A stretch of DNA of 39,195 bases from Escherichia phage JEP4, in the sequence record MT740315.1, one strand, 5' to 3'. Positions 10,637 through 28,664 of the stretch are shown piece after piece; the first letter of the stretch is position 1, and each line of letters begins with the position of its first letter. The translations under genes and the position numbers were made by a program. The notes below the pieces were generated by a model that was given only the letters and a program-made list of their open reading frames with translations, was not told where the DNA came from and did no database searches.

Positions 10637-12001
10637 ATGGCTACGTGGCAACAGGGTATTAATTCTGGTGGTTTTCTGGCTGGCATTGGTGCGCAAAATG
10701 AGAATGCACCAAAAGCAAGCGACATTAACGCAACGCTTGGTCTGATCCGCGAAAACAATGAATTGGCTCGCTCAGGTGCAAATAACGTTGGTCTGACCGC
10801 GTTACGTGGTCTGGCTGGAGTTGCTGATATTTATAAGCAGGAACAGCAACAGAAAGCGATTAATGCGTTCAATAAGGTTCACGCTGATGCATGGGCTTCT
10901 GGTGATCCATCGGGACTATTTAAGTTTGCCAAGGAAAATCCAGCGTTTGTTGCGCAGGCACAACAGGCGTTTTCCGGTCTTAATGAGCAGCAACGCAACG
11001 ATATGGGCGATTTAGCCATGAGGGCTAACGTCGCTCTTTCTCAGGGACCAGAAGCCTACAGTAAATTCATTACTGATAACAAGGACAGGTTAAATCGCGT
11101 GGGGGCGAATGCTGACTGGATGATTCAGACAGGTATTCAGAATCCAGAGCAGCTATCACACATGCTGACTACTATGTCTCTCGGTGCACTTGGGCCAGAA
11201 AAGGCGTTTGCTGTTCAGGACAAGATAGCTGGTCGTGAGATTGACCGAGGCAGACTGGCAGAGACAATCCGCAGCAATAAGGCTGGAGAGGCGCTAACAG
11301 CACGCGGTCAGAATATCACGATGCGCGGTCAGGATTTATCGATGCAGAGAGCATCAATGAAAGGGTCGGTTGGGAATAATGAGCGTACAGTTCAGTTAGC
11401 AGATGGCAGAACTGTAACGGTAGGCGGGAAGCTTCACGGCGCTGGGGCTAATGCGTTCTACGAAGGTATCGACAACGAGGGGAATATGGTTCGCGTTCCT
11501 GCTGGCTCTATTGCCGCTCCGGCTACATCGGCAGCAAGCGCGCAGAATTACGCAATGAAGAAAGATCTTGATGCAATTTCTGGTGCATCAATTGACGATC
11601 TTGGCTTCATGACTGGCATTACAGGCTCTTCAGGTTCTCCTGCTCTTGGTGCAGATATTCGTAGCCGTGCATCTGGTGGTGATCAGAGGAAACTATACAA
11701 CGCTGCACAGCGAATCCAAGGAAAGATGCAGAATCAGGGCATTGCAGCAGCCAGAGACATGGGGGCATCCGGTATCAACACCGTTGCAGAAGCAAAGATG
11801 TATTTTCAAGGTATGCCACAGGTTGATTTCTCAAGCCCTGAAGCACTGCAACAATCAATGCGCGACATTCAGCAATATACCGACAATTACAACCAACAAT
11901 ATAACGTTAATGTTGGTAAATCTCAGCGGCAGCAATCTCAACCTACACAGGTATCACAGCCAGCAGCCGGCAGTAACTTTTCTTCACTATGGGGTGATTA
12001 A
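10637..12001 (+). CDS. Ejection protein, gp20-like
   Basis: 454 aa; synteny. Confidence 0.6.
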
Positions 12002-13866
12002 TGGCTAAAGCATGGAAAGATGTTATCGCCTCTCCACAGTATCAGGCGTTAACTGAAGAACAGAAAGCACAGGCTCAAGCGCAATATTTTGATGAGGTTG
12101 TTGCCCCTAAGGCTGGTGACAAATGGGCTGAAGCAAGAGATCAGTTTTATGCAGCATACCCTCCACCTCAGCAGCAGAAAGAAGAACCATCATTGATGCA
12201 ACAAGCTGGCGATTGGCTCACTGGTGGTCAAAGTGCAGGGCAAATTGCAGAGCAGGCTGGTCGCGGTCTGGTAAACATACCATTTGACGTATTGCAGGGT
12301 GGCGCAAGTCTGATTAATGCAATCAGTCAGGGGCTTGGTGGGCCAAAAGTATTGGATGATGTTTATCGTCCAGTAGACAGACCGACAGACCCCTACGCGC
12401 AAGCTGGAGAAACAATTGGCGGGTATTTAGTTCCAGGAGTTGGAACGGCAGGAAGCATGGCTATTGGATCACTGGCAGAGGCCGCAAACCAGAAAGGTGA
12501 TTTCGCGCAAAATGCAGCCATAAATGCCGGAGTTAACCTTGCCGCTCAGGGGGTTCTTTCCGCAGCAGCAAAGGGAATAGGGCGTGGAATTACTGCTGTT
12601 CGTGGCGAAATATCACCAGCAGATCAGCAATTGCTCAAGCGTGCCGCTGCGGCAGATGTACCAGTTATGACATCGGATGTAGTTCCTCCAAAAACAAAAC
12701 TTGGCAATCAACTGCAGGGTTACTCAGAAGGAGTCATAGCTGGGACTGGACCAATGAGAGCCGCACAGCAGGATGCTAGAACCAAGCTTGTTAATCGCTT
12801 CACCGAAAAATACGGCGACTACGATCCATCTGTAGTCGTTGATAGTCTAAAGTCAGGCGTTGCAAGGGAAAAATCGTTAGCCAAGTCAAAACTAAACAAC
12901 CTGTCAGGAAGAATGGTTGGAAAGCCAGTTGATACAAGTGGCGCCATAAGAGCTATCGACGGAGCAGTAAACGAACTTGGGAAACTTAAAGGTGTTTCTG
13001 ACACCCAGACCATTTCTGCGCTTAATGATTATAAGAATGCCATTCAGGAGATAACAAATGGAGATGATGCCTTTGAGTTACTTGATAAGCTGAGAACTCA
13101 GTTCCGCATTGACGTAAAAGGCGATCGTACAGTTCTGCCATCAATGTCGCAAACAATGGTCGACAGGGTCTACAACTCGCTAACCAATAGCCTTAGTAAA
13201 TCTATAGCGAAAGGACTTAGCCCAAAAGATGCTTCAGCATGGAGAGCGGGAAAAGCTGATTATGCAAAAATGGCAACACATGCAACTCAAACGCGCCTTA
13301 AAAACGTTCTAAATAAAGGAGATTTAACTCCCGAGGCTGTAAATACCATTGTGTATGGACAATATGGGTCAGATATAGCTCGATTGTACGGGAAACTCGA
13401 TCAAAAAGGTAAAGACATGCTAAGGGCGGCATATATCAGCAAAATAGCTGACAAGGTAGGTGACAGCCCTCAGAAAATGATGACCGAGCTTGGCAAGCTG
13501 CAAAAACAAGCAAATGGTCAGGTGTTTAAAACTGTATTTGGTGGGAAGAACGGAAAAGAGATAGAGGGGATGTTATCTATTCTCGATGCTACCAAAAGAG
13601 CATCTGAGGCTAATGTTGTGACGAAGACTGGCATGACACTCGCGCCTTTGGTAAGGGTTATTGGTAACCTAAAAACCGGAGGCGCGCTATTGGCTGGGGA
13701 AACAGGGATTGGCCTTATGTCGAGGGTTTATGAAAGCCCTATGGCCAGGAATGCGCTCTTACGTCTGGCAAACACCAAAGCAGGAACGCCAGCCTATGAA
13801 AGAGCATTAAGTAACGCTGCAAATGCCATCAGACCGCTGCTTGCCACTGAGGCAACACAGCAGTGA
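12001..13866 (+). CDS. Ejection protein, gp16-like
   Basis: 621 aa; synteny; last gene of the virion block before the accessory island. Confidence 0.6.
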   Translation: MAKAWKDVIASPQYQALTEEQKAQAQAQYFDEVVAPKAGDKWAEARDQFYAAYPPPQQQKEEPSLMQQAGDWLTGGQSAGQIAEQAGRGLVNIPFDVLQGGASLINAISQGLGGPKVLDDVYRPVDRPTDPYAQAGETIGGYLVPGVGTAGSMAIGSLAEAANQKGDFAQNAAINAGVNLAAQGVLSAAAKGIGRGITAVRGEISPADQQLLKRAAAADVPVMTSDVVPPKTKLGNQLQGYSEGVIAGTGPMRAAQQDARTKLVNRFTEKYGDYDPSVVVDSLKSGVAREKSLAKSKLNNLSGRMVGKPVDTSGAIRAIDGAVNELGKLKGVSDTQTISALNDYKNAIQEITNGDDAFELLDKLRTQFRIDVKGDRTVLPSMSQTMVDRVYNSLTNSLSKSIAKGLSPKDASAWRAGKADYAKMATHATQTRLKNVLNKGDLTPEAVNTIVYGQYGSDIARLYGKLDQKGKDMLRAAYISKIADKVGDSPQKMMTELGKLQKQANGQVFKTVFGGKNGKEIEGMLSILDATKRASEANVVTKTGMTLAPLVRVIGNLKTGGALLAGETGIGLMSRVYESPMARNALLRLANTKAGTPAYERALSNAANAIRPLLATEATQQ

Positions 13867-13883
13867 CTAAATGCCATGGATGG

Positions 13884-14072
13884 TTATTTCCTTAGCACAT
13901 GAAACAATGTTTGCTTTAATTCCACCCATACAATTATGACCACTATAGACAGACAAAAGAAACTGAATGCATTGGCATCACGATCGAAACCTTCTCCGGC
14001 ACTAAATCCGTAAAAGGTCATAAAAAATATAAAAATTGCGCACTTTGCAACGTTTACAAATTTTTTCTTCAC
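13884..14072 (-). CDS. Small predicted 2-TM membrane protein (62 aa), GTG start
   Basis: GTG start preceded by AAGGAGGT Shine-Dalgarno at 5-nt spacing; two hydrophobic segments (VAKCAIFIFFMTFYGF and FSFFCLSIVVIIVWV); co-oriented downstream of the CI-like gene. Confidence 0.55.
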   Translation of the reverse strand: MKKKFVNVAKCAIFIFFMTFYGFSAGEGFDRDANAFSFFCLSIVVIIVWVELKQTLFHVLRK

Positions 14073-14132
14073 ACCAACCTCCTTAGTTTTGAGCAGGATA
14101 CCAGATGATAATGTGTCGCCTCCTAAAGGATA

Positions 14133-14774
14133 TCAAAGCAACGGGATTTCAAGGTAAACTGCGGTTGCCAAAATACTAACATCTTCATTTCTAACAAGAA
14201 TATTAGGATACATTGGGTTTAGGGATACTAGGTTTGTCTCTATTTCACCAATGTAAACCTGTTTGAAGCTCAATATTTGCTCTTTATCCAATGATGCTAT
14301 TACATAATCTTTGCTTTTAGCTTTTACTAGAGGGCTGAACGTGACAACCGATCCTCTGGGAAAGCTAATACCTGAACTTGTAGTCATAGCTTCACCTTCA
14401 ATAGTCAATGCAAATGCAGAGTCACCAACATTGTATATTGCAGGATGAAATCTAGACGATGAATGTTCACCTGTGTTTAGGTAATGCATAACTTCATCTA
14501 GTTTGAGAATTGGTATTTGCTTTACCAGAACGTCAGGCATGACGTTTTTTGTTCCCGGACCCTGACCTTCACCTAGAGCTAACCACTCAGCCGTAGTACC
14601 TAATGCGTTGGCTAATGCCTGCAATACCCGAAGCCGTGGTTTAGCCTCACCACCCTCGTATGCAGCTATTTGACGTTGAACAACACCAGCTAATTTTGAC
14701 AACTGCGCCTGCGTCATACCCCTGGACTGTCTTGCCAGAGATACTCTTGATGGGAATTGATCGTCAAAATTCAT
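14133..14774 (-). CDS. CI/LexA-like repressor: HTH_XRE N-domain plus degenerate S24 peptidase-like C-domain
   Basis: N-terminal HTH (GMTQAQLSKLAGVVQRQIAAYEGG); C-domain aligns to the c2 S24 domain in this window but has GEAM where c2 has GDSM, with Lys retained (SFKQ vs TFKK). Confidence 0.8.
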   Translation of the reverse strand: MNFDDQFPSRVSLARQSRGMTQAQLSKLAGVVQRQIAAYEGGEAKPRLRVLQALANALGTTAEWLALGEGQGPGTKNVMPDVLVKQIPILKLDEVMHYLNTGEHSSSRFHPAIYNVGDSAFALTIEGEAMTTSSGISFPRGSVVTFSPLVKAKSKDYVIASLDKEQILSFKQVYIGEIETNLVSLNPMYPNILVRNEDVSILATAVYLEIPLL

Positions 14775-14795
14775 TAGTTCACCATAAAAAATTCA

Positions 14796-14824
14796 TTGAC
14801 TCATACTGAGTGTGAGTGAATAAT
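14796..14824 (+). promoter_or_regulatory. Candidate sigma70 promoter for the Arc-like/antirepressor operon
   Basis: TTGACT, 17-nt spacer, AATAAT, about 50 nt upstream of Arc-like ATG. Confidence 0.35.
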
Positions 14825-14873
14825 CAAACTACAAAAAGTGAGATTATGAGTTTTTCAAAAACAGGAGTGCATA

Positions 14874-15047
14874 ATGACTGAAAAGATATCTTCCATCAAG
14901 CCGCGTCAGGTTCGTTTTACAGAAAAGGTTGATTCACATATCCGCGAATCAGCAAAAAGATGCCATAGGTCAATTCAGGCAGAGATAGCTTATCGAATGG
15001 AGTTATTAATGAAACTTGAGGCAAAGGGCGATGTTGTCATCCAATAA
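14874..15047 (+). CDS. Arc-like ribbon-helix-helix repressor (57 aa; below ORF-track cutoff)
   Basis: Read directly: MTEKISSIKPRQVRFTEKVDSHIRESAKRCHRSIQAEIAYRMELLMKLEAKGDVVIQ; AGGAG SD 6 nt upstream of ATG; beta-strand plus two helices pattern of Arc/Mnt RHH family; first gene of operon. Confidence 0.6.
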   Translation: MTEKISSIKPRQVRFTEKVDSHIRESAKRCHRSIQAEIAYRMELLMKLEAKGDVVIQ

Positions 15048-15120
15048 AAATAGTGAAGCCCGGCAGTGCGCGAACACAAACCGGGCCTCTATGTCAGTAA
15101 CCGTACTCAAGGAAACTAAC

Positions 15121-15759
15121 ATGAATATTGTAGCAAAATCAGATTATAACTTCCAAGGATTCACTTTTAACCCTGTAACAGAGGGCGGGTCTATCTGGTT
15201 TACCTCCACCGAACTAGCTAAGGCTCTCGGCTATAAAAAAACTGATGCCATCAGCCAAATTTATGCCCGTAATGCTGACGAATTTTCCGACTCAATGTCA
15301 TTGACCCTCAATATGAAGGTCAACGGAATAAACAATAGCTTACGTAACAAATCGGTCAGAGTTTACTCACTCCGAGGCGCTCACTTGGTGGCGATGTTTG
15401 CTTCTACGCCCAAGGCCAAAGAGTTCCGCCGCTGGGTGCTGGATATTTTGGATCGGCAGGCAGAATGCTCACCGATTGCAAAACAGTTCACTGACGAAGA
15501 GCTGGTTAATCTCTGCTACTTACAATTGTGGATGGAGAAGAGTCAACAAATGTGCAAACACATCTACCCAGGAATGAAGCAAATTGGTTCTGAGCTTTCA
15601 GGAAGGATTTACGATATTGCATATGAGACTCGCTACATGTCAGAAGAAACCAAGAAATCACTTCTTCGTGAAATGAAGAATCTTGATACCAACAATTTTG
15701 TCGTAAAGAACGCTCAGCCAATGCTGGCAAAACTTCGCGGCGAGGAATGGATTCATTGA
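15121..15759 (+). CDS. Antirepressor-family protein with Bro-N domain
   Basis: Begins MNIVAKSDYNFQGFTFNPVTEGGSIWFTSTELAKALGY (Bro-N-type); AAGGA SD; ORF-track start 15016 is an upstream extension overlapping the Arc-like gene. Confidence 0.75.
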   Translation: MNIVAKSDYNFQGFTFNPVTEGGSIWFTSTELAKALGYKKTDAISQIYARNADEFSDSMSLTLNMKVNGINNSLRNKSVRVYSLRGAHLVAMFASTPKAKEFRRWVLDILDRQAECSPIAKQFTDEELVNLCYLQLWMEKSQQMCKHIYPGMKQIGSELSGRIYDIAYETRYMSEETKKSLLREMKNLDTNNFVVKNAQPMLAKLRGEEWIH

Positions 15760-15846
15760 TTGGTGCGCCGGACTGCGCAAAAGAAAACCGCCAGTGTGCT
15801 GCTGGCGGCCTATGTCACACCCTTACTACCACATAAGGAATGCCTA

Positions 15847-16572
15847 ATGACTTTTAAGAATGTAGCAAACATCGGATCCGTTGTCACGGATAAAACCATT
15901 GACAGCCAAAGTCTTCTGATGATGGTTAATGAAGCTCGCAAGTTATGTGGAGAGCCATCAGTACGTAACAACAAATTCATCGAGAAAATTGAGGATGAAT
16001 TGGAAGGCGAGACCTACACAAAAAGTGTAGGTCGGAAAAACGGGGCTGACATTGATGTTATCTCCATGACTATCAAGCAGGCGCTTCGTGTTGCTGCTCG
16101 CGAATCTAAAGCAGTTCGCCGAACACTTGTAGACAAACTTGAAAGTATGCAGGAAGCGCACATTAAAAGCGGTAAATCAGCGAGTGGACTTGTTGAGTAT
16201 CGTCAAGCGCGAACATTGAAAATGACGGTTGAAGCTGTTACCAATCTGTTCGATCTGATGCCAAATCTTGCGCCGGAGGCAAAGCAGACAGCGGCAGCAA
16301 GTATAATCAACCCGCTCGTTGGTTTTAATGCAATACCTCTTCCGGCAATAGAAGAGCATTACTACTCAGCAGGGGAGGTTGCAGAGCAGCTTGGAGTAAC
16401 GGCCAACAAGATTGGTCGCATTGCTAACGCAAACAACCTCAAAACTGAGCAGTACGGGAAGTTCTTCCTGGATAAATCTGCGCATTCCAGCAAACAGGTG
16501 GAAGCGTTCCGCTACAATGAGGAAGGTGTTAAAGCACTACAACACCTTATTCATGGGAGTAATGTTGCATAA
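15847..16572 (+). CDS. Second antirepressor-like protein (Rha/ANT-like)
   Basis: 241 aa from ATG 15847 with AAGGAA SD; N-terminus resembles the Rha-type N-domain of the 33188 gene; domain call from recalled patterns only. Confidence 0.55.
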   Translation: MTFKNVANIGSVVTDKTIDSQSLLMMVNEARKLCGEPSVRNNKFIEKIEDELEGETYTKSVGRKNGADIDVISMTIKQALRVAARESKAVRRTLVDKLESMQEAHIKSGKSASGLVEYRQARTLKMTVEAVTNLFDLMPNLAPEAKQTAAASIINPLVGFNAIPLPAIEEHYYSAGEVAEQLGVTANKIGRIANANNLKTEQYGKFFLDKSAHSSKQVEAFRYNEEGVKALQHLIHGSNVA

Positions 16573-16793
16573 TGGCAAAGAAAAAATATGGCATTATGCC
16601 GCCAAGAATCAAAGGAAGAGCCAGGGTAAAAGGCGATGCTGGAAGGTATCACATTCTTGGAGTTCTGTGGCATGAGAGAGCTTTAATTTTAAGTAGGCCT
16701 CATGGGTACATTGAAAAGGTATCTATAGATAGAGTAGAGATTCTTCCCCTTACACCTGAAGAAGAAGAAACGTACGGACTTTTTGATAACTAA
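16572..16793 (+). CDS. Hypothetical protein (73 aa), last gene of antirepressor operon
   Basis: TAATG start/stop overlap with upstream gene; followed by terminator. Confidence 0.45.
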   Translation: MAKKKYGIMPPRIKGRARVKGDAGRYHILGVLWHERALILSRPHGYIEKVSIDRVEILPLTPEEEETYGLFDN

Positions 16794-16802
16794 CCAACTA
16801 AA

Positions 16803-16824
16803 CCCGCTTAATCGCGGGTTTTTT
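16803..16824 (+). terminator. Rho-independent terminator closing the antirepressor operon
   Basis: CCCGC-ttaatc-GCGGG followed by TTTTTT; hairpin overlaps the last codons of the convergent mnt homolog. Confidence 0.6.
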
Positions 16825-17065
16825 CTTTTCTAAGGATATCAGCCGCAACTTCTTTTACTCGTTCCGAGATTAATGAGTCCAGCCTCTCTTCTTCATCACG
16901 ATACCCGCTTACAGGTGATGGTTTGGAGAGTGATTCTTCCATCGTAGCCACAATTTCGGAATTGATAGACCTGTTATTCATTTTTGCACGCTGCTTAATC
17001 TTAGCGTGCAACTCGTGCGTAAGCCTCAAGTGGAACTGCGCCTCATCGTATTTGCTGTACATCAT
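16808..17065 (-). CDS. mnt: Mnt-like RHH repressor
   Basis: RHH core FHLRLTHELHAKIKQRAKMNNRSINSEIVATMEESL and tail SKPSPVSGYRDEEERL match recalled P22 Mnt (GRSMNSELLQIVQDALSKPSPVTGYRNDAERL); start at MMYSK with GGTGAGG SD; ORF-track 17146 start is an extension. Confidence 0.8.
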   Translation of the reverse strand: MMYSKYDEAQFHLRLTHELHAKIKQRAKMNNRSINSEIVATMEESLSKPSPVSGYRDEEERLDSLISERVKEVAADILRKEKTRD

Positions 17066-17481
17066 CAATGCCTCACCAAATGGGTGGAATGGCATCGTAA
17101 AACCTACTGTACAAATCAACAATCGTACCGTTTCGGTATGTAACAAATGCTCACCGTAGCCATGCTGCGGCGATTCCTTGTATCTGGAGCAAATTAAATG
17201 ACAGATATTATAAATAGGAATTGTTATTTAATAATGTTTGAAAATAAAAATCATGGACGATAGGAATAAAGGTATTACTTGTTTTTATTTTTGTAAGTGA
17301 CGCATTAAGCGCATAAATAATATGCCTGTTGATCAAGATTCTTGAGTATTGTAAAATAATCGTTTTGTTCATGTTGCATGGTTTTTAAATGAATAGAAGG
17401 TTATTTTTCAAAACAATTGCATCTTTGTCTGCAGTCATTCCGTTTTCTTCAATATCTAAATCTTCAAACAGGATGACTAAT

Positions 17482-19539
17482 ATGCCTGATATAACCCCAA
17501 ATGTTGTAATTGGGATGCCATCGCAACTCTTCACAATGGCTAGCTCTTTTAAAACCGTAGCAAATGGAAAAATTTATATCGGTAAGATTGACACAGATCC
17601 GGTAAATCCAGAAAACCAGATTCCAGTATATCTGGAACGAGAAGATGGTACTTATGTTCAGGTGCCACAGCCAATCGTTATCAATGCTGCTGGATACCCG
17701 GTATACAACGGACAGATTTCCAAATTCGTTACCGTGCAAGGCCATTCTATGGCTGTTTACGATGCATATGGTACGCAGCAGTTCTATTTTCCGAATGTGC
17801 TGAAATACGACCCGGATCAGTTAAGACAAGAGTTAGCAACAGAGGGTAATGAAATACTTGTTGACGACTCCCGTATTGCAGTTAAAAGTGTTCATGTAAA
17901 TTCAAAACTTAGAACACAGCACAATAAAAACGCAGAAATAATCACGCCAAATGATTTTATATCAAATTATGACATGATATCTGCAGCTATTAACTCTGGA
18001 GAGAGTGCCGCAGTATTTAATTCCAGGTATGCATTCACAATAACAGTTGGGGAATATGGTAATTTTAAATCTATTAGTGATGCTCTAAACTCAGCTGTTG
18101 CACTGCGTCCACTATGGAAAAATGGCATTGATTTTTGCATAATTAAAATTCTTTCCGGTTTTGTGCTCAATGAGCAAATAGAAATTTCAGCAGGATGTGA
18201 CTTATCATGGATTAAAATAATATCAGAAGACTCAGTGGTTTTCTCTGATACCAGTTTGTTTACTAAAACTGTTAGGACGTATTACGAATACAAATATTTA
18301 TTTTACATTTGCGATGCAGCAAAAAGTCCTGTATTTGCTATTCAGATTGAAGAAAATAGAGATGATAGCGATGTTTGTGCATTTATTGTAACTCAAAAAG
18401 CTGAACTTAATTTCTATCCGTATTCAGGTGCTCGAAAGTTCTACGTTGGAATTCATGGTAGTTTTGGTGCAAAAATTAGTGCATATCATACCGGATGTGC
18501 TCCTGATGAGGAAAGTGTTGCTGCATATATGCCAGAAGGGTATTACGTATGTGATTTTTCTTATAGCAGATACTCTTCCCTGCAACTGGTAAATAATGTC
18601 AAGGCATCAATGCCTGTAAGCAAGTTTGAACGGTGCACAGAGAGTACGGTTGCGTCAGTTAATTGTATTTATAATGTTAAAGCAGATTTTCAGGGGTCAA
18701 GTGCAAGCTATTGTTATATAGGATGGAATGTAAGAGATGGTTCAAATGTTAATATACGCGACCATAAAACTATACATTGCTCATATCGTGGATTAACCTG
18801 CATTCATACAGCATATGTTGATGCAAGACGACATGACGTTGAAGAAAGTGATGCAGAAACAAGTGGTAAAGTCCTTGAACCAAATATTGAAAAAGGTTTT
18901 TATGGATGTGCACTTGGTGTGCGTATTGATGGTGCGGGTTGTGTTGATGTTGCTGGTAATGATATGCGCAATTGTGGAACAGCCGTTAATGCAGACACTG
19001 GTGCTGTTATTTCAGGAAAAGCTGTAGATATCTCAGGGGCTGAGTTGGGATTTGATTGCCATGCAGGAGCATCTGTTAATTTTCCAAGGCTATGGGGTAC
19101 AGATATAAAAAAATTAATGCACCTCCAAGATGGTGTAAGGTTTAACTCTAATATTTGTCATGTATTTGGTGCAAATCCCACAAAAGATATTAGATGGATT
19201 GATGTAGAGAGATCTGAAGCTTCTTTTATGAATGCAACGCTGGATGCAGATTCAGGATTTATTGCTGACTGTGGTAGTAGGATAACCATTGAAGGAAGTA
19301 AAGTTAAAAACCAAACAATAAGAAGTTTTTTTGGATCACATGTGGCTATAAATAATACTGTTGCTGACAGAACTTATTCAGATATAGCCGATGTTCCGCA
19401 GTTGACTATTAGTGGAGGATCTTTTATTTCTGCTACAGGATATTCTAATTCTGACTCCAGCCCTCTTAGGTTGAGCACAACACGAAATACACTTGGAGTT
19501 GGAGGAGCCATATTTTCAACCAATGGGGAAGTTTCATGA
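17482..19539 (+). CDS. Tailspike protein: P22-family head-binding N-domain plus divergent receptor-binding domain
   Basis: N-terminus MPDITPNVVIGMPSQLFTMASSFKTVANGKIYIGKIDTDPVNPENQIPVY matches the P22 gp9 head-binding domain pattern; remainder is AT-rich and unrelated to my recollection of P22 gp9; ORF-track start 17389 is an extension. Confidence 0.85.
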   Translation: MPDITPNVVIGMPSQLFTMASSFKTVANGKIYIGKIDTDPVNPENQIPVYLEREDGTYVQVPQPIVINAAGYPVYNGQISKFVTVQGHSMAVYDAYGTQQFYFPNVLKYDPDQLRQELATEGNEILVDDSRIAVKSVHVNSKLRTQHNKNAEIITPNDFISNYDMISAAINSGESAAVFNSRYAFTITVGEYGNFKSISDALNSAVALRPLWKNGIDFCIIKILSGFVLNEQIEISAGCDLSWIKIISEDSVVFSDTSLFTKTVRTYYEYKYLFYICDAAKSPVFAIQIEENRDDSDVCAFIVTQKAELNFYPYSGARKFYVGIHGSFGAKISAYHTGCAPDEESVAAYMPEGYYVCDFSYSRYSSLQLVNNVKASMPVSKFERCTESTVASVNCIYNVKADFQGSSASYCYIGWNVRDGSNVNIRDHKTIHCSYRGLTCIHTAYVDARRHDVEESDAETSGKVLEPNIEKGFYGCALGVRIDGAGCVDVAGNDMRNCGTAVNADTGAVISGKAVDISGAELGFDCHAGASVNFPRLWGTDIKKLMHLQDGVRFNSNICHVFGANPTKDIRWIDVERSEASFMNATLDADSGFIADCGSRITIEGSKVKNQTIRSFFGSHVAINNTVADRTYSDIADVPQLTISGGSFISATGYSNSDSSPLRLSTTRNTLGVGGAIFSTNGEVS

Positions 19540-28013: not shown

Positions 28014-28664
28014 TTATGGAAGGTTTGCTAGTTTTGCATCGACAACTACGCCGATGATTTTGCAGTTTCCGTTGATCTCGATCATCGGATATTGTGGGTT
28101 AAGTGGTTTTAGAAACTTCCTGCCTGCATCAATAACTAACTTCTTGAAAGTTGCCTCGTTTTCTCCTTCTAGCTTTGCAACTACCAGTTTCCCGTTACGC
28201 GGCTCTACTTCAGGATCGACGAGTATTATCATTCCTTCAGGGATACTGAGACCGGCCGGAGCCGTCATTGAGTCTCCCTTCACGTCCAACCAAAACGAAT
28301 CTTCTGAACAGTCTACGGTTGTATCGTACCAGTTATCTATTGCACGCTTATGATATGGTTCTACAGCTTCCATCCAGCATCCTGCGCTCACCCAGCTAAT
28401 CAGAGGGTATGACCCTCTTGGATCATGCCTACTGTGATAGGCAATGTTTGAAAGACTTTCCTCTCCTTTCATCAGATAGTCAGGGGAACACTTCAACGCA
28501 TTAGCCAGGGCGAGAAGATTCTCTCCATTTGGCTCTGTCTCAGAGCGTTCCCACTGAGATATGGCAACATTAGACACGCCGACCATCTTTCCAAGTGCGG
28601 CCTGCCTGATCTTGAGTTCTTTTCTCCGAGCGCGAATGCGCTCTCCCATCAATTGAGTTTTCAT
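28014..28664 (-). CDS. c2: Prophage repressor, P22 C2-type (HTH plus S24 peptidase)
   Basis: MKTQLMGERIRARRKELKIRQAALGKMVGVSNVAISQWERSETEPNGENLLAL matches P22 c2 as recalled; intact catalytic GDSM and FKK; Ala-Gly in linker. Confidence 0.95.
   Translation of the reverse strand: MKTQLMGERIRARRKELKIRQAALGKMVGVSNVAISQWERSETEPNGENLLALANALKCSPDYLMKGEESLSNIAYHSRHDPRGSYPLISWVSAGCWMEAVEPYHKRAIDNWYDTTVDCSEDSFWLDVKGDSMTAPAGLSIPEGMIILVDPEVEPRNGKLVVAKLEGENEATFKKLVIDAGRKFLKPLNPQYPMIEINGNCKIIGVVVDAKLANLP

Follow-up and report, generated by a model that had tools for sequence, protein, structure and literature searches.

The window analyzed in this study is a stretch of 39,195 nucleotides from Escherichia phage JEP4 (sequence record MT740315.1), which is a P22-like (Lederbergvirus-type) prophage genome. 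Between its gene 16 homolog (encoding a DNA transfer protein, gp16) and its tailspike gene, which contains a Head_binding domain, it carries a cassette that opens with a minus-strand gene for a CI-like protein of 213 amino acids (aa), hereafter the repressor (Table 1). A spacer of 99 bp separates this gene from an operon on the other strand, which comprises in order a 57-aa gene, the antirepressor gene ant, a second antirepressor-type gene and a 73-aa gene. The slot between gene 16 and the tailspike gene has been described by Casjens and colleagues as a fast-evolving ‘ant moron’, of which ten versions were found in sixteen genomes, some of them with unknown control (PMC2629481). An earlier note on this DNA had read the protein as an SOS-blind repressor that is functionally analogous to the Mnt repressor of P22, sits in the mnt position and uses the fold of the S24 peptidases only for dimerization.

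The N-terminal part of the repressor, for which five helices are predicted at residues 7-67 (AlphaFold model), is a helix-turn-helix (HTH) domain. It is matched by Pfam HTH_3 (PF01381; residues 14-65, E-value 9.3e-13) and by the N-terminal domain of the 434 repressor (4.3e-06, phmmer against PDB sequences), and alignment columns show that its recognition-helix stretch GVVQRQIAAYEGGEAKPR is nearly invariant throughout the family. The C-terminal part matches Peptidase_S24 (PF00717; residues 108-206, 1.3e-12) above the cut-off, but only over profile positions 23-116 of 116. Since the match begins at position 23, the part of the profile that represents the cleavage-site strand is not recognized. 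The AlphaFold model, computed from the family alignment, has a mean predicted local distance difference test (pLDDT) score of 82.7, and its top Foldseek matches in the PDB are full-length lambda CI (3bdn; E-value 1.4e-10) and the lambda CI C-terminal domain (1f39; template modeling (TM) score 0.79, root-mean-square deviation 2.3 Å), with LexA and UmuD’ ranking next. The C-terminal domain is thus predicted to keep the S24 fold but not the S24 chemistry. In the PHROGs database the repressor belongs to phrog_4, annotated as ‘transcriptional repressor’ (7.5e-30), and RefSeq E. coli genomes annotate the identical gene as ‘helix-turn-helix domain-containing protein’. A Pfam search of the 213 aa gave no match to a ribbon-helix-helix (RHH) or Arc domain; the repressor appears to be an analog of Mnt by function and position only and not an RHH homolog.

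Self-cleavage of S24 repressors is determined by an Ala-Gly (or Cys-Gly) bond and a Ser-Lys dyad (PMC8565304). In phmmer alignments with the lambda CI chains of the PDB, ‘TIEGEAMT’ of the repressor pairs with ‘EVEGNSMT’ and ‘LSFKQV’ with ‘FTFKKL’, which therefore places Ala129 at the position of the nucleophile Ser149 and Lys171 at that of the general base Lys192. MAFFT alignments with LexA, lambda CI and the c2 repressor encoded in the same window put both residues in the same columns. The replacement of the nucleophile serine by alanine, which the earlier note had read by eye from an alignment with c2, is borne out by the phmmer, MAFFT, profile and fold-based comparisons, and no Ser or Thr is placed in the nucleophile column of the repressor by any of the phmmer, MAFFT or profile alignments. 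Its second observation, that the lysine is retained (SFKQ against TFKK of c2), is confirmed as well. Most of the pocket motif is kept together with Lys171, namely G127, M130, S137-F138-P139 and G141.

The cleavage site is lost in addition. Where lambda CI has YPVFSHVQ-AG and c2 has YPLISWVS-AG, the repressor reads IPILKLDE-VM, with Val95-Met96 at the scissile position. The only ‘AG’ in the protein lies within the HTH domain (L28-A29-G30), and neither AG nor CG occurs in residues 31-213. The earlier note was thus right that an Ala-Gly or Cys-Gly site is lacking, but it had looked for one in the wrong stretch: the quoted linker LALGEGQGPGTKNVMPDV (residues 65-82) is flexible, and the scissile bond of CI and LexA proteins lies not there but in the strand that follows. 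By contrast, and as the note had stated for its SAG, c2 carries SAG, GDSM and TFKK, which is the full Ala-Gly, Ser and Lys signature. Because it has neither the nucleophile nor the cut site, the repressor is predicted to be unable to undergo RecA*-stimulated self-cleavage and is probably blind to DNA damage.

We consider it highly improbable that the repressor still responds to DNA damage by being cut in trans by c2, LexA or a UmuD-type enzyme, or by means of an alternative nucleophile (Thr131, Thr132, Ser133 or Ser134). Lys171 is indeed kept, Ser and Thr residues are found two to five positions from Ala129, and intermolecular cleavage is known for UmuD. However, the substrate site itself is gone, given Val95-Met96 and a Pfam profile that is not aligned to the cleavage-site strand. 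Moreover, T131 pairs with T151 of lambda CI, which is non-catalytic, residues 131-136 form a low-confidence loop in the AlphaFold model, and the relatives described below have lost Ser, Lys and Ala-Gly repeatedly and independently, which argues against selected catalysis.

Table 1. Features of the repressor/ant cassette and its surroundings, with positions given in the window.
Feature	Position	Strand	Basis or remarks
Gene 16 homolog	12001-13866		DNA transfer protein/gp16
62-aa hydrophobic open reading frame	13884-14072	-	phrog_21338, function unknown
CI-like repressor gene, 213 aa, ATG start	14133-14774	-	HTH_3 and degenerate Peptidase_S24
S24-fold C-terminal domain (residues ~86-209), proposed to be non-catalytic and to serve oligomerization	14148-14519	-	Pfam, AlphaFold, Foldseek
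Lys171 codon AAA, general-base position kept (lambda K192, LexA K156)	14262-14264	-	sequence read and alignments
Ala129 codon GCT, Ser nucleophile position (lambda S149, LexA S119)	14388-14390	-	sequence read and alignments
Val95-Met96 codons GTT-ATG, at the Ala-Gly scissile position of lambda CI, LexA and c2	14487-14492	-	alignments
N-terminal HTH DNA-binding domain (residues ~8-68)	14571-14753	-	Pfam HTH_3, 434 repressor N-domain matches
Divergent control region between repressor gene and RHH-ant operon, 99 bp	14775-14873	.	97-101 bp long in most related loci
Rightward sigma-70-like promoter of the RHH-ant operon, TTGACT-17-AATAAT	14796-14824	+	consensus match, 10/12
Candidate operator O1 ACTCATACTGAGT, over the -35 box	14799-14811	.	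11/12 to the 13-bp palindrome ACTCAT-N-ATGAGT
Second cluster of TGAGT-type half-sites (GTGAGATTATGAGT), downstream of the -10 box	14838-14851	.	candidate element
Arc-like RHH gene, 57 aa, first of the operon	14874-15047	+	phrog_10182, 2.3e-37, function unknown
Conserved hairpin between RHH stop and ant start	15055-15089	-	proposed terminator of a sar-like antisense RNA
Antirepressor gene ant (Bro-N and P22_AR_C)	15121-15759	+	Pfam; phrog_245 anti-repressor Ant, 4.4e-50
Antisense promoter-like sites within the first ant codons, TTGGAA-18-TACAAT and TTAAAA-16-TATAAT	15127-15170	-	consensus match only
Second antirepressor-type gene	15847-16572	+	phrog_1726 anti-repressor, 2.2e-102; RefSeq: hypothetical
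73-aa gene, last of the operon	16572-16793	+	phrog_4977, unknown function
Terminator-like hairpin after the 73-aa gene	16800-16821		
True Mnt homolog, 84 aa	16808-17062	-	Pfam Arc (PF03869), 9.4e-15; ‘LSKPSPVSGYRD’ common to P22 Mnt
Tailspike gene	~17482-19539		Head_binding domain
c2 repressor gene	28014-28664	-	SAG, GDSM, TFKK

The family of the repressor was assembled from 22 close homologs in a collection of 5.8 billion proteins, to which ten genome loci, the locus of a Providencia phage and ten loci from metagenomes or run assemblies were added. Of 34 family members, P0016 alone contains an Ala-Gly; Ser is replaced by Ala in nine, and Lys by Arg or Met in eight. The members with Ala for Ser form the clade of the window (the window repressor, P0001, P0002, P0004 and P0005) and a second clade (L010, L011, Providencia phage PSTNGR2lys and P0022) which has Arg for Lys as well. 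In four further members the Ser is kept and the Lys is replaced by Arg or Met. The same picture emerged on a larger scale when 1.84 billion representatives clustered at 50% identity were searched exhaustively with a profile. In the best 51 representatives of 190-320 aa that were scored, AG or CG is found once, Ser 38 times, Lys 35 times and Ser together with Lys 30 times (13 lack the Ser and 16 the Lys). Among the next 73 representatives, AG is found in 37 and the full AG, Ser and Lys signature in 35.

On a neighbor-joining tree, parsimony counts approximately ten changes of the Ser state and eight of the Lys state. P0003, which is 81% identical to the window repressor, has a Ser yet nests within the Ala clade; the codons in the relatives are TCT/TCA for Ser and GCT/GCA for Ala, one T/G change apart. 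Ser and Ala therefore seem to interchange by single T/G changes. Such a recurrent pattern at Ser, Lys and Ala-Gly is as expected once catalysis is no longer selected. Judged from these alignments, the loss of cleavage competence is family-wide and recurrent and not a one-off, and the change from Ser to Ala appears to be a late, recurrent event in a family that was already without an Ala-Gly site.

The C-terminal domain is nevertheless under strong purifying selection. Among the five closest relatives, its nonsynonymous divergence (dN) is 0.07-0.25 with saturated synonymous divergence (dS). Owing to this saturation, the pairwise dN/dS ratio (omega) is mostly not computable, so that most pairs are given as low dN with saturated dS; where computable, omega is approximately 0.1. 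The repressor is thus not a decaying gene, since its C-terminal domain is under such selection. That it would be a relic of an autocleaving repressor with no present function is very unlikely, to the point of being hardly credible, even though the catalytic residues and the cleavage site are lost and one E. coli genome with the same locus has a degraded prophage (insertion of IS3, truncated genes). Every locus has an intact reading frame, the proteins are still 72-92% identical at saturated synonymous divergence, the HTH domain is near-invariant, and the synteny extends across genera. In addition, the whole locus is found with at least 99% identity (99-100%) in 28 of 5,426 complete E. coli genomes.

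We observed that many family members (P0012-P0021 and L004-L009, 259-288 aa in size) have an extra C-terminal tail of around 50-60 residues that is coiled-coil-like (for example ‘...RLSALENRLDEIMHLIRKG’) and is absent in the clade of the window. This tail may represent an additional oligomerization element of the longer members.

The gene organization of the cassette was compared with that of 21 further loci (19 distinct), all of which contain a repressor homolog. They originate from Yersinia, Klebsiella, Tatumella, Providencia, Xenorhabdus and Morganella, from metagenomic or unclassified contigs and from Providencia phage PSTNGR2lys, and the cassette sits within the late-gene regions of P22-like and siphovirus-type prophages. 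In all 21 loci the repressor homolog is divergent from a small gene at the place of the 57-aa gene, and genes for Bro-N, P22_AR or pRha antirepressors come after this small gene. Its product was read and is homologous to the 57-aa protein in 20 loci (56-57 aa); in locus L019 it is called as a 67-aa product. Many of the related loci encode two antirepressor-type proteins, like the operon of the window. The repressor gene thus appears, from this synteny, to be one arm of a conserved, portable antirepressor-control cassette. In deposited phage genomes, tblastn with the repressor gave a best match of only 41% identity (Providencia phage PSTNGR2lys) and tblastn with the 57-aa protein none, and megablast of the locus matched the flanks and the ant gene only. 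In two metagenomic loci with a repressor that is 92% identical (L020 and L021, 2564-3184), ant is called as two proteins, Bro-N (130 aa) and P22_AR_C (71 aa), and was probably split by a frameshift or a stop codon.

The 57-aa protein itself is presumably an RHH protein of the Arc type. It scores 8e-4 against Pfam ParD_like, which is below the cut-off, and its family profile matches a profile of an Arc/Mnt alignment over the strand-helix-helix core at a probability of 67% (E-value 5.2e-5). Its ‘RQVRF...HRSIQAEI’ resembles ‘QFNLRW...GRSVNSEI’ of Arc.

A second immunity repressor would show a similar architecture. If the repressor were of this kind, its targets would extend beyond the ant operon to lytic promoters of its own or superinfecting phages and its link to ant would be incidental. 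It does have the architecture of primary prophage repressors, and phrog_4 is a general ‘transcriptional repressor’ family. We regard this as distinctly unlikely, since the homologs always occur with small RHH and ant genes in the late regions of unrelated prophages and genes of the cro/cII type were found beside the repressor homolog in none of the inspected loci. The window has its own complete c2 as well, and no other good copy of the candidate palindrome described next exists in its 39 kb.

The control region contains a putative rightward promoter in front of the RHH-ant operon, of which the -35 box TTGACTCAT is conserved at most loci. The candidate operator O1 overlapping this box is the only match to ACTCAT-N-ATGAGT with at most one mismatch in the 39-kb window. 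The palindrome is found at the same place in relatives: it is perfect in L022, has 11/12 matches in L015, L020 and L008, and 10/12 in L018, L006 and L007. L022 (a contig of run ERR11525655, 2495-3428) encodes a repressor that is 76% identical to that of the window and belongs to the same clade, and its small RHH protein is of the other type (‘MAYRMTPE’, 39% identical), with the ACTCATAATGAGT palindrome still perfect. Because the palindrome is kept in L022 despite the other type of RHH protein, and because the recognition stretch of the HTH domain is near-invariant, we infer that O1 is the operator of the CI-like repressor, as a candidate. Downstream of the -10 box there is a second cluster of half-sites of the TGAGT type. 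Most loci have an ATGAGT or ATGAAC element at a spacing of 37-39 or 47 bp from the -35 ACTCAT, and the window, L015, L017 and L020 share an identical block AGTGAGATTATGAGTTTT.

At most loci this spacing between the -35 ACTCAT and the downstream element measures 37-39 bp; in the clade of the window it measures 47 bp. The difference of approximately one helical turn is a hint of cooperative binding that depends on helical phase. On the minus strand, a CATAAT is conserved in the closest relatives only, and we do not claim a promoter there. The downstream ATGAGT was also considered as a leftward -10 box and rejected, since the bases around it show no -10-like conservation from locus to locus. Control of the cassette by LexA was rejected as well, since no CTGT-N8-ACAG with at most one mismatch is present in the control region; over the whole window, such matches occur at chance level.

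Gene 16 and the repressor gene are separated by a 62-aa hydrophobic open reading frame. The similarity of the window to the P22-like phages phiv205-1 and UPF_BP1 stops just past the start of this frame, which places the left boundary of the inserted cassette at approximately 14110. Salmonella phage UPF_BP1 is 99% identical to the window as far as 14090, just left of the repressor gene, and carries mnt, divergent from arc and ant, in the slot of the window's repressor and ant genes. In Salmonella phage SPN3UB (a siphovirus; L013, 2419-3141), gp21 differs from Ant of the window by one substitution over 212 residues, and this antirepressor is preceded by a 108-aa divergent repressor of the Mnt/Arc type (gp19) and an unrelated 57-aa Arc-like protein (gp20). 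The window and SPN3UB therefore look like a clean swap of regulatory cassettes, with unrelated control cassettes upstream. As a near-identical Ant is found under two cassettes, the control cassettes appear to be interchangeable before the same effector, and this interchangeability is the strongest available argument that the CI-like repressor does the job of Mnt.

The mnt position that the earlier note had assigned to the gene holds relative to arc and ant, with a divergent orientation as in P22 and UPF_BP1, but the window also keeps a true Mnt homolog elsewhere. This homolog is the immediate left neighbor of the tailspike gene and is convergent with the ant operon. Its arrangement is that of the mnt-only ant morons of ST64T and ST104 (PMC2629481). 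No clear operator palindrome for this homolog was found in 17040-17400. Since it is still present, the CI-like cassette has been added and does not replace the only Mnt-type gene of the phage.

The P22 immI region also encodes an antisense RNA, sar, between arc and ant, which is directed against the ribosome-binding site of ant, and the window may have a counterpart. A hairpin between the RHH stop and the ant start is found in 17 out of 18 loci examined, with the same architecture, differing stems and compensatory changes. In 13 of the 17 loci, the antisense strand forms the more stable hairpin (in the window -23.9 vs. -15.6 kcal/mol for the other strand). On the antisense strand it is followed by a U-run, and the 111-nt antisense fold has a z-score of -4.56. 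We should note that per-sequence folds were used here, since RNAalifold on the MAFFT alignment gave only seven pairs (loop indels misalign the stems). Within the first ant codons there are promoter-like sites on the antisense strand, and in most loci, including those with a different coding sequence, a -10-like hexamer covers approximately the first dozen ant nucleotides. Together, the hairpin and these sites suggest a sar-like antisense RNA of approximately 80 nt. P22 sar itself is not present, as an Rfam search of 13800-17500 gave no hit at E-values up to 1.

Taken together, the repressor is likely an SOS-blind maintenance repressor of a portable antirepressor-control cassette of the immI type, in which the S24 fold serves as an oligomerization scaffold. 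The corresponding reading of the earlier note is supported: every available test agrees with it. The analysis shows the residues, the predicted fold, the conserved neighborhood, the disappearance of the cleavage signature throughout the family and the purifying selection, and from these we infer non-cleavage, dimerization through the C-terminal domain, operator binding and repression of the ant operon in the prophage. In the proposed mechanism, the repressor would be made in the lysogen, where its HTH domain of the 434/lambda type would bind ACTCAT/ATGAGT-type operators that flank and overlap the operon promoter. It would sit there as a single dimer or as two dimers joined through the S24-fold domain, so that the operon (Arc-like RHH protein, Ant, second antirepressor and 73-aa protein) would stay silent in the lysogen. 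The C-terminal domain, no longer an autoprotease, would serve only for dimerization or oligomerization, and SOS induction of the prophage would be left to the canonical c2 with its Ala-Gly, Ser and Lys. After infection, the RHH protein (as an Arc analog) and the probable antisense RNA (as a sar analog) would limit the synthesis of Ant.

Several points weigh against this interpretation. The alignment at the cleavage-site strand is less certain than at the Ser and Lys motifs. Ser and Lys occur together in 30 of the 51 top representatives and Lys171 is kept in the window, so that the pocket may have a residual role. Downstream of the -10 box, the TGAGT elements are repeated in direct orientation, an uncommon arrangement for the sites of an HTH dimer, and no convincing leftward sigma-70 promoter was found for the repressor gene. 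Finally, the repressor/ant cassette might conceivably be a target of the Mnt homolog beside the tailspike gene as well.

The main rival explanation, which we consider unlikely, takes the dead S24 domain as a receiver that is inactivated by a protein partner, for instance an antirepressor of its own operon or of a co-resident prophage, or a host protease such as Lon or ClpXP. The cassette would then be an inducible relay or bistable switch and not an Mnt-like lock. The operon encodes two different antirepressor-type proteins and many related loci carry two as well, the C-terminal domain is strongly conserved with Lys171 and most of the pocket motif in place, and trans-acting antirepressors that hit non-cognate repressors are documented (PMC3121763). 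On the other hand, nothing in the sequence identifies a partner, conservation of the C-terminal domain is equally expected of a dimerization domain, and P22 Mnt, the functional analog, has no known inducer. A bolder and rather doubtful proposal follows the same line: an undescribed, widespread CI-like family would have made its S24 domain non-catalytic and, together with an Arc-like protein and an antisense RNA, would form a portable cassette that displaces Mnt in some phages, with the dead domain, in the boldest form, receiving a non-SOS signal and the cassette acting as a relay or bistable element of prophage cross-talk.

The proposed role as maintenance repressor can be compared with several known systems. 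The organization resembles that of P22 immI (mnt divergent from arc, sar and ant), as the gene occupies the same ant-moron slot and diverges from an operon that begins with a small RHH gene of the Arc type and continues with ant, with a probable antisense RNA between these two genes. The proposed job is also that of Mnt, namely silencing of ant in the lysogen with no SOS input. However, Mnt is an 82-aa RHH tetramer and the repressor a 213-aa protein of HTH_3 and S24 fold, and the operators differ. With lambda CI, P22 c2, 434 CI and LexA the repressor shares the two-domain architecture, the predicted fold, the Lys and the G-x-x-M and F-K motifs, but it has Ala129 and Val95-Met96 and is predicted to be non-cleaving. 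Unlike lambda CI and P22 c2, it is not adjacent to cro/cII-type genes and would not be the primary immunity repressor.

LexA S119A and G85D are classic non-cleaving forms used for crystallography (PDB 1jhh, 1jhf). The two kinds of change in the repressor family, Ser to Ala at the nucleophile and loss of the Gly at P1’, parallel those of the laboratory non-cleavable mutants LexA S119A, LexA3 (G85D) and lambda CI Ind-. Those are engineered or selected single mutants of inducible repressors, whereas the changes in the repressor family are natural, fixed, combined and recurrent. A natural S24-fold repressor that lacks both Ala-Gly and Ser and acts as an SOS-independent regulator is LexA of Synechocystis sp. 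PCC 6803 (PMC7567884). Unlike the repressor, it is not encoded by a phage but acts as a global regulator of chromosomal origin; its N-terminal domain is of the winged-helix LexA type, and it has no link to antirepressors. Gifsy GfoR/GtgR, N15 CB and SPC32H Rep are non-cleavable primary repressors that are inactivated by LexA-controlled antirepressors (PMC3121763). They resemble the repressor in being phage repressors incapable of self-cleavage with antirepressors in a central role, but they are the targets of antirepressors and mostly have no S24 domain, whereas the window repressor would control antirepressor genes, keeps the S24 fold and has no LexA box. A gonococcal cI ortholog is also without Ala-Gly (PMC12186493). 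Non-cleavable repressors as such are thus already known (Gifsy, Synechocystis LexA, gonococcal cI), but our literature search found no description of a CI-like repressor with a dead S24 domain that controls an antirepressor operon, nor of the cassette.

The combination of HTH and Peptidase_S24 is commonly taken to mean ‘SOS-inducible repressor’. This reading would fail for a substantial group of proteins in prophages, and prophage inducibility predicted from domain content would be wrong for this repressor family: among the closest 51 representatives the scissile bond is almost never kept, and between a quarter and a third lack a catalytic residue. The family would provide a clean natural case of an enzyme fold that is kept only as an assembly scaffold after repeated, independent loss of the catalytic dyad. 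At the level of the circuit, the logic of P22 immI (maintenance repressor, small RHH repressor, antisense RNA and ant) seems to have been rebuilt with an unrelated repressor in a cassette that moves among Enterobacterales prophages of the podovirus and siphovirus types. In practical terms the stakes are modest and lie in the silencing of antirepressors, which are mediators of prophage cross-induction.

Two side observations were made on the collected sequences. In E. coli E100341 (L001; NZ_CM128606.1, 653-3929 and 12429-12680), the same prophage is degraded, with several genes truncated, an IS3 within the DNA-transfer genes and an ‘S24 family peptidase’ pseudogene adjoining dacD; the repressor/RHH/ant cassette is still intact there and 100% identical to that of the window. 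The profile search also gave six proteins of 640-2332 aa with 7-14 tandem HTH copies (P0023, P0046, P0048, P0049, P0052 and P0058), an unusual architecture that is unrelated to the repressor finding.

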